Source: Escherichia coli O127:H6 str. E2348/69
GTDB lineage: Bacteria; Pseudomonadota; Gammaproteobacteria; Enterobacterales; Enterobacteriaceae
Reading direction: 5' to 3' (one strand)
Assembly (NCBI RefSeq): GCF_000026545.1
Contig: NC_011601.1
Length of the DNA: 64,000 nucleotides
In this document: one piece after another, positions 1 through 7,015 of the stretch
Layout of the letters: each line of letters begins with the position of its first letter
Numbering within the stretch: position 1 is the first letter of the stretch
Translations under genes and position numbers: made by a program
Notes under the pieces: model-generated
What the model was told of the DNA's origin: nothing
The model's input: only the letters and a program-made list of their open reading frames with translations
Database searches by the model: none

Positions 1-307
1 ACCGAGGTTCTATTTCCGTAAATAGTGGTGAGCCCTCATCCCAGATCCCAACATCATAGTGACTGCCGACGCCAAAGAATTTCGGTAGATCAACATAACC
101 ATAAAAATCAAACCAGTCTTTTCTTCCTGCTACAGTATATTCAGGGTAGAGGTCGTTAGTCAGTCTTGGGCCAAAGCGAGAGTCTGTGCGACCAATGACA
201 TTCAAGCTTTGATGTAACCAGCTTTCATCAATTTTAATTTCCTGAGCGTTTCCAATGCAAGGTATTAATAGAATGGATAAAGCTATCCAGTGCTTTTTTA
301 TATACAT
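1..307 (-). CDS. Tsx-family nucleoside-specific outer-membrane channel, N-terminal part only (gene continues beyond window start)
   Basis: Reverse-strand translation from ATG at 305-307 gives [21 protein letters not shown] (signal peptide) followed by ...FGPRL.ND.Y.EY....[10 protein letters not shown]...FFG.......GIW..GSPLF.EIEPR, which matches the conserved N-terminal region of E. coli Tsx as I recall it. Not in the ORF track because it runs off the window edge. Confidence 0.65.
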
Positions 308-383
308 AAATATATCTCTTATATATTGTTGATTTAGAGAGAAATAATGTCATCCAGTGAATGAATGGTATTATAAGTTTTTG

Positions 384-2003
384 TTATTTGCTTACTTCTA
401 CCCGCATTTCATTTACCTGTGCAGGAGTAATCTTGTGGCCTTTCTTAAAATAATCGATTACGACATTGGACATGTTATTTCCGGCGCGGACCTGGACATT
501 TTTCCCTTCTTTGAATGCCAGAAAACCATCGCCCCCAAGTGCAAGGAAAGTCGTAGTCGCAACATGGTAAATATTCGTATCAACGATCTCTTCACCATTA
601 ATTTTAAAAGATACAATGCGCTGACCTACTGGTTTCTGCAGGGTATAGCGCATTTCTGCGCCTTTTGACATTTGCAGGATGCCATTGGTAAGCGATGCCC
701 CGTGCTCCAGTAGGTTACGCAGATCCTTACCGCTGAGATCCATTTCAGTAAGTTCATTCTTGAAGGGGAATGTACTGGTAATGTCACCAAAGGTAATCGT
801 GCCTGCATTTATATCAGCACGTAAACTGCCGGAGTTTATCAACGCAATTTGTGCAGTCGGTGCAGCGACAAGCATTGCATCGGTAAACAGGTTGCCAAGT
901 TGCGATGACTCACCGTAGGCACGAGTTAATGCAATCGATGATTCACCGACTGGTTGGCGTACAATATCCGCCAGTTTTTTATTCCAGCCATTGATAACTT
1001 TTTGTGTGGTTGGATCGGGTATCCATTCATCGGCATAAACCGTTTTCAGCTCAAAGCTCTTCACTTTATGAGTACGAGCTGTAGGGTTGACATCAAGGAT
1101 TAATTTACCAATATCGATACCGCCACTGTCAGTCGAAAGGATTAAGGTGTTGCCGACTTTGATTGGTTCTGGCGTTCCGACGTGGGCATGCCCGGTAATC
1201 AGAATATCCAATCCTTTCACCTTGCTTGCGGTTTGAATATCTTTATCCAGCGCACGTCTAACATCTGTATTGCCAATGCTGGACTGACGCGCCGGTACGC
1301 CTTCATGAACCAGCGCCACGGTGAGGTCAACCTTATCACGTAACTCGTCGATATAATGCTGCAAATACTTCACTTCATCACGTGCTTCAATCCCCTGATT
1401 CTTGAGGGTCGCGGAAGATTTATCAAATCGGTTATTATTGTCATTATCGAGTCCCTGGAGAGAGAGCTCCGAGACCGTGTCATTAAATGCAAATACGCCG
1501 TGTAGCCCAACAATACCAATCTTGATGCCATCTTTTTCCAGGATGGTGTAGGGCTTGTTCCAGAAGGGTTTCTCACTCTCTTTATGATAAACATTGCCTA
1601 ATAAAACAGGGAAATTCGCTTTGCTTAATTGTCGGAGGGCATTATCCCAGCCATGGTCAAACTCATGATTACCGATTGATACTGCGTCAAAAGGCATGGT
1701 ATTCATAATATCAATTATTGCTTCGCCCTTTGTCAGGCTACTGATATATGGCCCGGTGAAATAGTCTCCAGCATCAAAATAAAAGGTGGCTTTATTTTTG
1801 GCTTTCTCTTGTTTTACTAACGTGGATATATTGGCAAAGCCACCAATGTCGCGTTTTCCGTCTGCGACATACGGTACTTTATAGGAATCCACATGAGCGT
1901 GAAGATCATTGGTATAAATAATCGTGACATCCTGCGCCATGACTGAGGTCGAAAAAATAGTCAGCAATGTTGCGGCAAGTAAAGTACGCTGCGCTGTTTT
2001 CAT
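384..2003 (-). CDS. periplasmic 5'-nucleotidase / metallophosphoesterase, UshA-CpdB family (paralog 1)
   Basis: ORF 384..2009; signal peptide (MKTAQRTLLAATLLTIFSTSVMA); calcineurin-like metallophosphatase motifs NDLHAH, DAGD, GNHEFD, GHAH. Start set at second ATG (2003) for better RBS spacing. Immediately upstream of and co-oriented with the Tsx-like gene. Confidence 0.8.
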   Translation of the reverse strand: MKTAQRTLLAATLLTIFSTSVMAQDVTIIYTNDLHAHVDSYKVPYVADGKRDIGGFANISTLVKQEKAKNKATFYFDAGDYFTGPYISSLTKGEAIIDIMNTMPFDAVSIGNHEFDHGWDNALRQLSKANFPVLLGNVYHKESEKPFWNKPYTILEKDGIKIGIVGLHGVFAFNDTVSELSLQGLDNDNNNRFDKSSATLKNQGIEARDEVKYLQHYIDELRDKVDLTVALVHEGVPARQSSIGNTDVRRALDKDIQTASKVKGLDILITGHAHVGTPEPIKVGNTLILSTDSGGIDIGKLILDVNPTARTHKVKSFELKTVYADEWIPDPTTQKVINGWNKKLADIVRQPVGESSIALTRAYGESSQLGNLFTDAMLVAAPTAQIALINSGSLRADINAGTITFGDITSTFPFKNELTEMDLSGKDLRNLLEHGASLTNGILQMSKGAEMRYTLQKPVGQRIVSFKINGEEIVDTNIYHVATTTFLALGGDGFLAFKEGKNVQVRAGNNMSNVVIDYFKKGHKITPAQVNEMRVEVSK

Positions 2004-2043
2004 TCGCATTCCTTGTTAAATAAATTGACTGATAAATGAGATT

Positions 2044-3597
2044 TTATTTGGCGACGTCCATGACTCGTTTAGTTAAGTCTGGGGTGACAGGTTTATGATT
2101 TTTGAAATAATCGATGATAGATTCCGCCGAGGTTGTTCCCGGTATCGTCTTCACATTTTTTCCATTCAAAAATGCTTCAAAACCGTCACCACCACTGGCA
2201 CAAAAGGAGTGCGTGGCAATACGATATGTTTGATTATCTTCCACGGGTTTGCCGTTAATGGTGAAAGAGATTAACCGTTGGTTGAGTGGTTTTTTGCTGT
2301 CATAGACAACCGCAACGCTTTTTGAAACCTGTAACACACCGTTAGTTAGATTGGTTGCATGCGTCATCAATGATTTGAGATCGCGGCCCGTCAAATCCAT
2401 CTCGATGAGGTCATTATTAAAGGGGAATGTGCTAATAACATCTCCCAGTGTGATATCGCCTTTAGGAAAATCAGCTCGCATCCCACCGCTATTTTGAAAT
2501 CCGGCAACGGCATCAGGTGTTTTTTCCATCATTGCATCAAGAATAAGGTTGCCGGTAGAAGAGGAACTACCATACTCACGTGTTAAAACTATGGGAGAAT
2601 GGCCGACAACTTCCTGTGTTATTTTGTTAAGCTGTGCACTCCATTTATCAATAGTATTTTGAACGATGGTGTCAGGTTTAAATTGATCTGCAAAGATGGT
2701 GATTAACTCACCATTATAACTATCAATTTTCTTCGTTTTCGGATTGTAATCAAGCACAAGTTTTCCGATGTTGGTGCCGTATGCATCGGTAGATACAATT
2801 AATGTGTTATTAACTTTTATTGGTTGCGGTGTTCCGACATGTGCGTGACCGGTAATTAAGACATCAACACCATTCACTTTTTTAGCTGTCTCAATATCTG
2901 CCTGTAGTAGCCGCTCCACATCTTTACTACCAAAGCTTGATTGACGCGCCGGGACACCTTCGTGAATTAGCAAAACGGTAATGTCGACTTTACCTTTTAA
3001 TTCTGCAAGTGCTTTATTTAAAAATTTAATTTCGTCTCTGGCTTCTACGCCTTCACGTGCTTTTGCCGCGACAGTATCATAGAAAGCGAATGCGCCATGC
3101 AATCCAATCACACCAATCTTTAAACCATCTTTTTCGATAATGGTCCACGGATGATCCCAAACTGGTTTATTCGTATCGGTGTAGTAGATATTTCCCAGCA
3201 GAATGGGGAATTTTGCTTTTGATAACTGAGACACCATATTGGGCACACCGTGATCGAACTCGTGATTACCAACAGACACCGCATCAAAGGGCATAGTGTT
3301 CATGATATCAATAATAGCTTCACCTTTGGTCAGTGTGCTGATATACGGCCCGGTAAAATAGTCGCCTGCATCAAAGAAAAACACATCTTTGCTTTTTTTC
3401 TTCGCTTCATTAACGATGCCTGCAATATTAGCCATACCACCTATAAGTCTGTTCTTATCAACAGCGATGATTTTTGCCGGATTGACATGTGCGTGAATGT
3501 CATTCGTATAATAAATAGTAACGTCCTGAGCTAGAACACTGTGAGAAAATATCACGCCGAATATGACTGATAATGTTGTAAATACAGTTTTCATCAT
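2044..3597 (-). CDS. periplasmic 5'-nucleotidase / metallophosphoesterase, UshA-CpdB family (paralog 2)
   Basis: 517-aa ORF with signal peptide and the same metallophosphatase motifs (NDIHAH, DAGD, GNHEFD, GHAH); more divergent than paralogs 1 and 3. AGGAGG-like RBS just upstream. Confidence 0.8.
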   Translation of the reverse strand: MMKTVFTTLSVIFGVIFSHSVLAQDVTIYYTNDIHAHVNPAKIIAVDKNRLIGGMANIAGIVNEAKKKSKDVFFFDAGDYFTGPYISTLTKGEAIIDIMNTMPFDAVSVGNHEFDHGVPNMVSQLSKAKFPILLGNIYYTDTNKPVWDHPWTIIEKDGLKIGVIGLHGAFAFYDTVAAKAREGVEARDEIKFLNKALAELKGKVDITVLLIHEGVPARQSSFGSKDVERLLQADIETAKKVNGVDVLITGHAHVGTPQPIKVNNTLIVSTDAYGTNIGKLVLDYNPKTKKIDSYNGELITIFADQFKPDTIVQNTIDKWSAQLNKITQEVVGHSPIVLTREYGSSSSTGNLILDAMMEKTPDAVAGFQNSGGMRADFPKGDITLGDVISTFPFNNDLIEMDLTGRDLKSLMTHATNLTNGVLQVSKSVAVVYDSKKPLNQRLISFTINGKPVEDNQTYRIATHSFCASGGDGFEAFLNGKNVKTIPGTTSAESIIDYFKNHKPVTPDLTKRVMDVAK

Positions 3598-3826
3598 CCC
3601 TCCTAGATAGGGGGTGTTACATTTGTTGAATTATTTAAATAAAAGACACATCGTGTCTTATTTTATGTAAGCATAGTTCAGAAAAGTATTGTGTGATCTT
3701 AGTAACAAATAATGTTATTAATTAAACATTGACCATGATTATATTTCACGGTCATACATTTATATATTTAATTAAATGAAAGGTAGTGATCTCTCTTAAT
3801 TTATGGTCGTTTGTCGAGTGTATTGA

Positions 3827-4951
3827 CTAACAAGATGGAGTGAGCGATTCATTGTATTTTAACGCCAGTGAGGTCAGCATTTGCGTTACGCGACCTGCGG
3901 ATAATAACGCGCTTTGGGTAAAGTCGTGTTGGTCTGTCAGCCATGTGATAAAACAACGACTGGTTGCCAGAGAAACATTTGCGCCCCTTTCTAAGCAGGC
4001 TCCCGTGAGTAGGCAGACCATCTTGCAGTTATTCCCCTGCTCCCAGCGCTGCCACTGATTTTGCCACCAACCATGGTATGTCGTTCCCTTAAAATGCCAG
4101 GGCGTATCAGCGTTACTGTCACTGATTTCTTCTTCTACGAACCAAAGTTCACCTTGTTGTTGGCGGAACTGATCTGCCCAGGCTGTAATAATTGCGCCTC
4201 TTAGAAAACATTCGTGTGAAATAATATGCGTTTTGACATCTGGATAGCGGATTTTCAGTATTCTGAAATGCCCGTGTGCCTTGATAACCGGGCGTAGTAT
4301 GGCTCCCTTACCGTTGCGCTTGAGTACAGCACTGCCATACTGAATTTCATCGAACTGGCTCCGGCGCAAGAATTGCGCTTCACGCATATCTACCTTCTGC
4401 ACGATATCGCGATGGTGCATAGTTGGTTCTGTGTTGCCCTTGTAACTGTACCGCAGACTGTCTCCTGTCTGATGTTGCGTATAATTCGTGGAGAGATGAA
4501 GAATGTTGCCACGAGTGGCGTCAAGACTGACTAAAACATACAGTTTTTGTACTGCGCTGGCCCCTTGAAAGGGTATGAACAGTTGAACGGTTTCAATGGC
4601 CTGGGGATGCGTAATTTCTTTCTGATATTTTTTAGGCGTCCAGACTTTTTTGCAGTTACGGCATTGAATGCGTTGCGAACCCTGTGGATTGTGACCATAA
4701 CAAATCATGTCTGTGCCATAACATACCGGGCAGAAATGGCCTTTCTCAATTGCATAAGTAGACAAGTGAACTGACAACCAGTCACGAAATTGTTGCTCGT
4801 CAAACAACGGCGGGTAACTGCCACATGCCCGACAGTGCAGTGCCGGATAACCCAGTTTATAGTCTGGCCAACTGTAATCTTCCGATGAGGCCAATCCCAA
4901 ATTTCGGCAACCGAACGTTTTACAGGCATTAATCGTAAACAGAGTCGACAT
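3827..4951 (-). CDS. hypothetical Cys-rich protein, predicted cytoplasmic, possible zinc-ribbon protein
   Basis: 374-aa ORF with no signal peptide. N-terminal half contains several CxxC pairs (CRACGS, CPVCYG, CRNCKK); C-terminal half is Trp/Gln-rich. I cannot assign a family from sequence alone. Confidence 0.55.
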   Translation of the reverse strand: MSTLFTINACKTFGCRNLGLASSEDYSWPDYKLGYPALHCRACGSYPPLFDEQQFRDWLSVHLSTYAIEKGHFCPVCYGTDMICYGHNPQGSQRIQCRNCKKVWTPKKYQKEITHPQAIETVQLFIPFQGASAVQKLYVLVSLDATRGNILHLSTNYTQHQTGDSLRYSYKGNTEPTMHHRDIVQKVDMREAQFLRRSQFDEIQYGSAVLKRNGKGAILRPVIKAHGHFRILKIRYPDVKTHIISHECFLRGAIITAWADQFRQQQGELWFVEEEISDSNADTPWHFKGTTYHGWWQNQWQRWEQGNNCKMVCLLTGACLERGANVSLATSRCFITWLTDQHDFTQSALLSAGRVTQMLTSLALKYNESLTPSC

Positions 4952-5083
4952 ATATCACCAACGATTTCACAAGGTCGTTGATTTTGTCCGGCAACTATCC
5001 CCTGCGGATGTGATTACTCTCACATAAATAAGTCTTTCAGAACGTAATGTAGCAATCCTTTATCTCACTGAAAGGGATTGTTT

Positions 5084-6637
5084 ATGAAAATTAAAATACT
5101 TGCTGCGGGTATCGCATTAACACTGCCGTTCTGGGCTTGCGCTAAAGATGTCACTATTATTTATACCAACGACCTCCATGCGCATGTAGAACCTTATAAA
5201 GTGCCGTGGATCGCTGACGGTAAACGGGATATTGGCGGCTGGGCAAATATCACTACGCTGGTTAAGCAAGAAAAAGCAAAAAATAAAGCGACATGGTTTT
5301 TTGATGCGGGCGACTATTTTACCGGGCCATATATCAGCAGCCTGACCAAAGGTAAGGCTATTATCGATATTATGAATACTATGCCGTTTGATGCCGTCAC
5401 AATAGGCAACCATGAATTTGACCACGGCTGGGACAACACATTATTACAGTTGAGCCAGGCAAAATTCCCTATTGTGCAGGGCAATATTTTTTATCAGAAC
5501 AGCAGTAAATCATTCTGGGATAAGCCCTATACCATCATCGAAAAAGACGGCGTGAAAATTGGCGTTATAGGTTTGCACGGAGTATTTGCCTTCAATGATA
5601 CGGTATCTGCTGCCACGCGCGTGGGTATTGAAGCGCGCGATGAAATTAAATGGCTACAACGTTATATCGATGAACTCAAAGGCAAGGTTGATTTGACCGT
5701 CGCCCTGATCCACGAAGGTGTTCCAGCCCGCCAGTCCAGTATGGGAGGCACAGATGTGCGTCGCGCGTTGGATAAAGATATTCAGACGGCAAGTCAGGTG
5801 AAAGGGCTGGATATTTTGATCACCGGACATGCACATGTGGGTACGCCGGAACCGATTAAAGTCGGCAATACGCTCATCCTCTCCACTGACAGCGGCGGGA
5901 TTGATGTGGGCAAACTGGTTCTCGACTACAAAGAGAAGCCGCATAATTTTACGGTGAAAAACTTCGAGCTTAAAACCATTTACGCTGACGAGTGGAAGCC
6001 CGATCTGCAAACGAAACAGGTGATCGACGGCTGGAATAAAAAGCTTGATGAAGTGGTGCAACAAACGGTGGCGCAATCGCCGGTTGAATTAAAACGTGCC
6101 TATGGTGAATCGGCTTCCCTCGGGAACCTGGCGGCTGACGCCTTACTGGCAGCAGCGGGTAAAAATACCCAACTGGCTTTAACAAACTCTGGTGGTATCC
6201 GCAATGAGATCCCCGCAGGGGCGATCACGATGGGCGGCGTCATCAGTACCTTCCCGTTCCCCAACGAACTGGTGACGATGGAACTCACGGGTAAACAATT
6301 ACGCAGTCTGATGGAACACGGCGCAAGTTTAAGCAATGGCGTTTTACAGGTATCGAAAGGCCTGGAAATGAAGTACGACAGCAGCAAGCCGGTTGGTCAG
6401 CGGGTAATCACACTGACTCTGAATGGCAAACCCATTGAAGATGCGACGGTTTATCACATTGCTACTCAGAGTTTCCTTGCTGATGGTGGAGATGGTTTTA
6501 CCGCCTTTACCGAAGGGAAAGCGCGTAACACAACGGGCGGTTATTACGTTTATCACGCGGTGGTTGATTACTTCAAAGCGGGCAACACCATTACGGATGA
6601 ACAGCTCAACGGTATGCGCGTGAAGGATATCAAATAA
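5084..6637 (+). CDS. periplasmic 5'-nucleotidase / metallophosphoesterase, UshA-CpdB family (paralog 3)
   Basis: ORF 5078..6637 begins with TTG; the ATG at 5084 with upstream AAGGGA is the likely start ([20 protein letters not shown] signal peptide). Closest paralog of the 384..2003 gene. Confidence 0.8.
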
Positions 6638-6914
6638 AAGTGCGCACTGAATTGACTCAACCGTTTGTTACCCGTTGATTGCGCAGATCCTGTATTCGGC
6701 CTACGCGAGGGCGCAGGCCGAATCAGATGCCTTAGCATCACCATCCGGTGGCAGGACGTTGTTTTTAGAATTAGCCCAGGTGTCGCTGTGTTGTCAGAAT
6801 ATGAGTCAAAACGTGCGAGGTGGATTGCGCTATAGAGAAATCTTTTATCGCCTCTAATTAAGATGAGTTTTTTTCATCTTCCCTGATTTTTCCTCACCAT
6901 CATTGGTTATTTTT

Positions 6915-6985
6915 CGGTTGACGCCCTTCGGCTTTTCCTTCATCTTTACATCTGGACGTCTAAACGGATAGATGTGCACAACACA
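6915..6985 (+). promoter_or_regulatory. metF promoter region with MetJ operator (met-box repeats)
   Basis: TTGACG at 6918-6923 and an AGACGTCT-like met box (GGACGTCTA at 6954-6962) followed by a related repeat, about 40-100 bp upstream of metF. Assigned by known metF regulation. Confidence 0.45.
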
Positions 6986-7015
6986 ACATATAACGATAAG
7001 CGATTGATGAGGTAA

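Follow-up and report, generated by a model that had tools for sequence, protein, structure and literature searches.

Old nucleotidase paralogues with a p1-specific loop insertion in the metL–metF island of Escherichia coli E2348/69

Introduction

In the avian pathogenic Escherichia coli (APEC) strain BEN2908 and in other extraintestinal pathogenic E. coli (ExPEC), the interval from metL to metF has been described as genomic region GR31 (metL..metF), and the passages of that study cited here propose coordinated nucleoside processing and transport (PMC12928451, 2026). A second point of reference is a pair of structural-genomics entries of 2009 in the Protein Data Bank (PDB), 3IVD and 3IVE, a 'putative 5'-nucleotidase (c4898)' whose titles describe complexes with uridine and cytidine. 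Here we analyse the metL–metF island of E. coli O127:H6 str. E2348/69, which lies in a stretch of 64,000 nucleotides (nt) of contig NC_011601.1 (assembly GCF_000026545.1), hereafter the window; coordinates are positions of the window unless a locus is named. The island encodes three UshA-like nucleotidases, here called paralogue 1 (p1), paralogue 2 (p2) and paralogue 3 (p3), together with a Tsx-family channel and one hypothetical protein (hyp). The genes are already annotated, p3 has been crystallised and the region has been listed among ExPEC/APEC genomic regions; the finding is an ordinary one, to which useful details are added.

The reading that we favour, and consider probable as a whole, is that three old nucleotidase paralogues sit in an acquired island that serves nucleotide harvesting, that p1 carries a selected loop, and that the inverted p1 and p3 genes form no inversion switch. 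A preliminary description of the locus had proposed both that the p1 loop might alter substrate specificity and that p1 and p3 might invert the segment between them. Half of that interpretation stands: the loop is a real, specific and conserved feature in a position where it may well matter. The inversion switch is refuted.

Results

The open-reading-frame list and RefSeq agree on three intact UshA-like genes where the preliminary description had placed them. Specifically, p1 occupies 384..2003 on the minus strand (539 residues, or 541 if translation starts at the in-frame ATG at 2009), p2 occupies 2044..3594 (or 3597) on the minus strand (516 residues), and p3 occupies 5084 (or 5078)..6637 on the plus strand (517 residues). 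RefSeq annotates all three as 'bifunctional metallophosphatase/5'-nucleotidase', which argues that their likeness is not due to chance. The amino-acid identities are 67.8% for p1–p3, 55.5% for p1–p2 and 56.2% for p2–p3; p2, at about 56% to either of the others versus 68% between them, is the most divergent, as had been supposed. The statement that p1 and p3 are near-identical over long stretches holds for the protein in the N-terminal catalytic domain (81% identity) and fails for the C-terminal domain (55%) and for the DNA. For all pairs, the N-terminal domains are 59–81% identical and the C-terminal domains 47–55%.

At the nucleotide level the pairs share 58–67% identity, with longest exact runs of 17–20 nt. 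Across the three pairs, the proportion of differing synonymous sites (pS) is 0.79–0.82, which is saturated, against 0.20–0.30 for non-synonymous sites (pN), and the saturation indicates that the paralogues are very old duplicates. Recent gene conversion was considered as a cause of the higher p1–p3 identity at nt 60–300 and 720–840 and rejected, since the local synonymous sites are equally saturated and p2 shows the same peaks; the peaks thus point to constraint at the protein level.

Each paralogue has its own orthologues, 85–93% identical, in Citrobacter, E. albertii or Enterobacter. The p1 group spans 85–93% identity and the p3 group 85–99% across four genera, and p2 is 91% identical to its Citrobacter enshiensis orthologue; E. 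albertii and Enterobacter have two further paralogue groups, C520 and B522. C. enshiensis has the E. coli arrangement, likewise at metL–metF. At other chromosomal sites, E. albertii (locus L005, 3004–10611) has four nucleotidase paralogues and Tsx in one operon divergent from hyp, and Enterobacter asburiae (locus L008, 4823–10611) has three nucleotidase paralogues and Tsx in a co-oriented operon, also divergent from hyp. The Tsx of these two clusters is a different paralogue, 58% identical. We considered their gene order as a sign of paralogue-mediated inversion and set this aside, because the different paralogues and the different Tsx mark them as differently assembled modules. Judging from the sequences, the genes belong to an old multigene set whose members travel together, and the set is not a recent amplification; 'three-fold expansion', the term used before, is misleading for paralogues older than the divergence of Escherichia, Citrobacter and Enterobacter.

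The E. coli database sequences of p1 (P0001), p3 (P0042 and P0052) and p2 (P0107 and P0110) all match PF00149 and PF02872, that is, an N-terminal calcineurin-like metallophosphatase domain (Metallophos) and a C-terminal substrate-binding domain (5_nucleotid_C). The metal ligands and the catalytic His–Asp of UshA (D41, H43, D84, N116, H117, D120, H217 and H252) are all conserved in the three proteins. In addition, the nucleoside clamp of UshA (F429/F498, D504 and R410) corresponds to F416, F488, D494 and R397 of p1, with equivalents in p2 and p3, and the ribose Asp and the arginine of GG(I/M/L)R are conserved in all three. An AlphaFold2 (AF2) model of p1, with an overall predicted local distance difference test score (pLDDT) of 78 and a predicted template-modelling (TM) score of 0.78, fits PDB 3IVD with a TM score of 0.85–0.92, and it matches 3IVD, the Thermus 5'-nucleotidase, CD73 and UshA with a match probability of 1.00.

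Compared with the 3IVD chain, p3 scores 1123 bits, and its mature part differs at two positions plus a construct-junction residue; p3 is the protein of 3IVD/3IVE. For p1, the score is 769 bits and the identity 66–67%. All three proteins have signal-peptide-like N-termini that end in A-x-A before (Q/K)DVT, where the crystallised construct begins. The UshA equivalog of NCBIfam (NF007109, cut-off 600 bits) is not reached by p1, p2 or p3 (156.1, 164.8 and 152.5 bits), and all three stay far below the NadN, CpdB and SoxB equivalogs (cut-offs 436, 486–883 and 550 bits). A literature search on c4898, 3IVD and the neighbouring CFT073 locus tags returned no paper or activity data. By sequence, p1, p2 and p3 are best described as old, functionally maintained paralogues of a distinct UshA/CD73 subfamily represented by PDB 3IVD.

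The insertion that the preliminary description had seen in p1 is real. The segment ELSLQGLDNDNNNRFDKSSATLKNQ (1395..1469, minus strand; p1 residues 181–205) replaces three residues of p2 and p3, giving a net insertion of 22 residues. It is specific to this paralogue and, in four genera, a hallmark of all p1 orthologues: the p1 homologues at 80–99% identity (E. coli, Citrobacter, E. albertii and Enterobacter) have 536–539 residues and all carry ELS[LI]QGLDNDxxNRFDKSxAxLKNQ. The insertion is absent from every non-mosaic aligned homologue at 74% identity to p1 or less, and these insertion-free homologues comprise the Cronobacter/Atlantibacter group, the p3 orthologues, the p2 orthologues, Providencia and Vibrio.

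The Asn/Asp-rich composition of the segment, its run of AAT, GAC and AAC codons and the lack of a confident AF2 structure would all suit a neutral, slippage-prone low-complexity expansion that does nothing for the enzyme. We regard this as very unlikely, because the insertion is present without length variation in 658 of 658 island-bearing E. coli genomes and its sequence is near-identical in four genera despite differences at 52–80% of synonymous sites (pS 0.52–0.80 and pN 0.00–0.07 over the 25 codons). The low pN against a high pS, together with the constant length, argues for a selected feature and against a slippery tract.

In the AF2 model, pLDDT falls below 50 over p1 residues 172–209, which fits a flexible surface loop, as had been supposed. 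In an alignment in which the catalytic residues of UshA and CD73 come out with their known numbers, the insertion falls at UshA I178/N180 and CD73 L184/N186, where p2 and p3 are gapped. In closed CD73, the carbonyl of Leu184 is 3.9 Å from adenine N6, and a part for it in base preference has been proposed (PMC8677862). By analogy, an effect of the p1 loop on substrate specificity is plausible: placed where the UshA/CD73 loop closes over the nucleobase, it would most likely tune substrate choice or domain closure. Its D-N-D-x-N-N-R-F-D stretch is, in our own reading, reminiscent of a Ca-binding DxDxN loop.

As the preliminary description had noted, p1 (minus strand) and p3 (plus strand) are oppositely oriented and about 3 kb apart, and it had proposed that they are close enough to mediate inversion. 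If they acted as inverted repeats, homologous recombination would flip the p2–hyp segment and give rise to inversion isomers and chimeric genes; besides the orientation and spacing of the two genes, one natural allele, described below, speaks for this in showing that p1 sequence can move into p3. The DNA of the pair does not suit such a role, however, with 66.6% nucleotide identity, a longest perfect match of 17 nt, no 90-nt window above about 83% identity and saturated synonymous sites (pS 0.79). RecA-dependent exchange in E. coli needs a perfectly matched stretch of some 20–30 bp and drops sharply as sequences diverge. The p1/p3 pair, with its 17-nt longest match, is thus not a RecA substrate, and RefSeq annotates no recombinase gene in or next to the island.

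The genomes agree with this. Among 5,426 complete E. coli genomes, 658 carry the island in the form seen here. In 658 complete genomes, at least 80% of window 1–7000 is found as a single same-strand match, where an inversion of about 2000–5080 would drop same-strand coverage below 60%; p2 plus hyp is likewise matched at 80% coverage or more in 658, and the p1 insertion region occurs once in each of the 658. The segment is inverted in 0 of 658. The inversion model is refuted at the population level, the inverted pair is no inversion switch, and we give recombination between these repeats next to no credence. Two findings had been named in advance as speaking against the earlier proposals: a DNA identity too low for homologous recombination, which is what the alignments give, and an insertion common to the family, which they do not.

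The allele that does join the two paralogues is a mosaic p3, P0015, of 537 residues, 74% identical to p1 and with two database members, compared with 2,053 in the main p1 cluster; no p1/p3 mosaic occurs among the complete E. coli genomes surveyed. Its gene (locus L004, 3398–5011; E. coli draft GCA_001520995.1) occupies the p3 position (5084–6637 in the window), adjoining metF and divergent from hyp. A tract of about 400 nt that contains the 22-residue insertion is 97.5% identical to p1 and 58.5% to p3, and at informative sites its flanks are p3-like (93.6% and 93.8% identity). The junctions fall inside strings common to p1 and p3, GATATTATGAATAC (14 nt) and CATGAAGG.GT (11 nt). P0015 is a non-reciprocal conversion patch with two junctions and not a crossover, which further argues against the inversion model, and the patch probably formed by template switching at microhomology.

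We infer that the donor was the resident p1. The contig stops 314 nt into that gene, and its final 20 nt equal those of the mosaic gene just before the p1-like tract; a repeat at that point would stop an assembler, which explains why the contig ends exactly at the shared tract. Rare, short gene conversion at microhomologies is the only p1/p3 exchange seen. In the p1 orthologues of E. albertii and Enterobacter, the signal-peptide region is p3-like, the first 90 nt being 79% identical to p3 compared with 50% in E. coli, which is a further sign, in sequence, of older exchange.

The island of about 7.6 kb occupies the metL–metF spacer in place of about 200 bp of the K-12 spacer. RefSeq gives the order metB, metL, the Tsx-family channel (minus strand), the three nucleotidase genes and one 'hypothetical protein', then metF and katG. 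Specifically, the island holds the tsx-like porin gene, p1, p2, hyp and then p3, divergent from hyp; p2, p1 and tsx form a gene string on the minus strand, with the tsx-like gene last. The tsx-like gene (286 residues by RefSeq annotation; locus L001, 5447–6307) appears at 1..307 on the minus strand, listed as its 3' part, the gene itself starting left of the window. The right-hand end of the island is 6638..6868, and a blastn search of the K-12 spacer against L001 shows that metL–metF spacer homology resumes at 6869. Within this end, just 3' of p3, a GC-rich imperfect palindrome (..CGGCCTACGCGAGGGCGCAGGCCGAATC..; 6675–6730) could be a repetitive extragenic palindromic (REP)-like element or a terminator. 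Beyond the right end of the island, at 6940–6975, the promoter region of metF is undisturbed and has its MetJ boxes, which are repeats resembling AGACGTCT; the insertion would therefore have left metF regulation in place.

The locus has three states in E. coli, namely empty (K-12), a short island with hyp and p3 only, and the long island described here. About 1,183 of the 5,426 complete genomes match the hyp part alone of a p2–hyp query, and both such loci examined (L002 and L003) have the short form. In these, compared with window positions of about 4014–6868, hyp overlaps the end of metL. The two forms of the island are 99% identical in p3, and hyp is about 76–78% identical in protein and about 80% in DNA, with an unalignable 3' end. 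The contrast between p3 and hyp suggests that the long island arose by recombination with a foreign tsx–p1–p2–hyp block. The island is horizontally acquired, strain-variable and optional in E. coli; its carriers include E2348/69, UTI89 and APEC strains and also environmental and commensal isolates. In E. coli EC17CM2 (NZ_CP190349.1, hit H60), the match to 2044–4951 is annotated 'metallophosphatase | IS1 family transposase | bifunctional metallophosphatase/5'-nucleotidase', and p2 there appears, from this annotation, to be split by an IS1 insertion.

The remaining gene, hyp (3827..4951, minus strand; 374 residues), encodes a Cys-rich 'cytoplasmic protein' with two N-terminal Zn ribbons, of which the second is InsA-like. 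In Pfam it gives only a weak match to an InsA-type Zn ribbon, which 7 of 29 family members (hyp and 28 relatives) reach at E ≤ 0.001, and the family counts about 150 cluster representatives among 1.8 billion. The family conserves the two N-terminal Cys4 ribbons and a C-terminal part in which R197, P221 and H228 are invariant and H246, W296 and W300 nearly so; its alignment shows no conserved acidic triad. An AF2 model from a 26-sequence alignment was unusable (pLDDT 41.8), a family profile searched against PDB sequences returned Cys-rich zinc-finger noise only, and PHROGs gave a weak Zn ribbon match only. A reading of hyp and the three enzymes as a defence system was dropped, no PADLOC model having hit.

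Genome context was more informative. Among eight distant relatives of hyp, one is not on record and one lies on a 3-kb contig with an unannotated neighbour; the six informative loci (L011/L012, L014/L015, L016, L018, L019 and L020) all adjoin nucleoside or nucleotide genes. The neighbours are NupC with a nucleoside phosphorylase (PNP); a porin with a class-B acid phosphatase and a class-II cyclic-nucleotide phosphodiesterase (L014); a single nucleotidase; a deo-like operon adjoining a Bmp nucleoside ABC transporter; and Tsx with a nucleotidase and a phosphodiesterase. The porin–acid phosphatase–phosphodiesterase locus had no match when searched against E. coli genomes. The most economical reading, by guilt by association, is that the hyp family would be a dedicated family of DNA-binding regulators.

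The tsx-like protein scores 492.8 bits against NCBIfam NF011686 (cut-off 311) and is 65% identical to K-12 Tsx. Upstream of p3, about 68 bp before the start codon, TGTGA-N6-TCACA at 5009..5024 is the sole perfect match to the CRP consensus core in the window. The core is conserved in six loci of four genera, the TGTGA half-site being invariant and the TCACA half-site differing in one locus. A second conserved block lies upstream of p2 (3691..3730, minus strand), where the 20-bp palindrome AATGTTTAATTAATAACATT (3711–3730) is followed by a CRP-like site with one mismatch (TGTTA-N6-TCACA, 3692–3707, minus strand). Between E. coli and Citrobacter, this block is the sole well-conserved stretch of the hyp–p2 spacer, and it suggests a separate regulated promoter for p2–p1–tsx. 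Immediately upstream of hyp, the inverted repeat CAACGA-N10-TCGTTG (4959..4980), also found by a hairpin scan, has arms that are invariant in six loci of four genera, and it is a candidate operator.

Discussion

Since the CRP boxes are conserved and a Tsx paralogue is linked to the enzymes, we favour catabolite-controlled use of external nucleotides or nucleosides, a view that the GR31 study reached independently (PMC12928451). The island would then be a module for harvesting external nucleotides, in which a Tsx-type channel would sit in the outer membrane and three Sec-exported, presumably periplasmic phosphoesterases would strip phosphate from nucleotides or related phosphoesters. The enzymes would have diverged mainly in the substrate-binding C-terminal domain, and the divergently transcribed Zn-ribbon protein hyp may act as a local regulator.

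Another possibility is that the substrates of the enzymes are signalling molecules or molecules of the host, such as extracellular ATP or AMP (yielding adenosine), NAD, cyclic nucleotides or dinucleotides, and UDP-sugars, with a role in host interaction or signal turnover. NadN, CpdB and the 5'-nucleotidases that release adenosine do belong to the superfamily, the presence of three or four diverged paralogues points to several classes of substrate, and the occurrence of the island in E2348/69, UTI89 and APEC strains would on this account reflect an enrichment in enteropathogenic E. coli (EPEC), ExPEC and APEC. We nevertheless hold it to be unlikely, because the conserved CRP boxes and the linkage to a nucleoside channel look catabolic, relatives of hyp flank classical catabolic operons (deo, nupC and PNP), and environmental and commensal isolates carry the island as well.

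Several points weigh against the harvesting reading that we prefer. Tsx channels pass nucleosides and not nucleotides, which fits poorly with coupling to periplasmic nucleotidases. None of the three enzymes belongs to a curated NCBIfam equivalog, and their substrates are predicted from sequence; activity, localisation or expression data were found for none of the genes. The CRP sites are consensus matches only, and the window holds four matches with at most one mismatch where 1.85 are expected. The mapping of the p1 loop relies on the sequence alignment of a region that varies and on a part of the AF2 model with low confidence, and in the mosaic strain the contig ends before the resident p1, the presumed donor, is fully readable.

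A more elaborate version, which we put forward tentatively and would not yet bet on, is that of a regulated nucleotide-harvesting machine in which each paralogue would handle one class of nucleotide or phosphoester, the p1 loop would lie over the base pocket as a gate or as a determinant of specificity, and hyp would found an undescribed family of regulators that respond to nucleosides or nucleotides. If this is true, hyp-type regulators, built on a DNA-binding ribbon like that of IS1 InsA, would control deo-, nupC-, porin/phosphatase- and nucleotidase-type operons across the Gammaproteobacteria. The hyp family is in any case uncharacterised, and in many bacteria it is a candidate for the control of nucleoside and nucleotide scavenging. 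For the enzymes, p1 and p3 offer a ready-made pair for the study of specificity in a superfamily of drug targets, the p1 loop being a clean, selected natural variant at the site that lies opposite the base in CD73. The conversion of 400 nt, in a tract where the two paralogues share about 59% identity (66.6% overall), indicates that very diverged inverted copies can exchange sequence via microhomology.

Comparison with known systems places the locus as follows. GR31 is the same island with the same four open reading frames, Tsx and three UshA-like genes; the passages of the GR31 paper cited here are silent on the p1 insertion and the conversion allele, on how old the paralogues are, and on the CRP sites and the hyp family. 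As to regulation, the CytR/CRP- and DeoR-controlled regulon (tsx, nupC, nupG, deo, udp and cdd) likewise combines a Tsx channel, CRP boxes and nucleoside-related enzymes. Here, in contrast, genes for CytR and DeoR are both absent, an operator was identified for neither, and the linked candidate regulator is a Zn-ribbon protein that has no Pfam domain beyond the InsA-like ribbon.

The structural entries 3IVD/3IVE represent the same protein as p3, and p1 differs from it in having 22 extra loop residues. With UshA and CD73, the three proteins share the two-domain fold, the metal ligands, the catalytic His–Asp, the Phe–Phe base clamp and the ribose-binding Asp, and with UshA also a signal-peptide-like N-terminus on every one of them. 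They are, however, 23–27% identical to UshA (23–26% to the K-12 protein); they have a GHAH motif, in which His replaces Gln254 of UshA and Asn245 of CD73, and a Tyr in place of Arg354 of CD73; and the 180s loop of UshA and CD73 is missing in p2 and p3 and much longer in p1.

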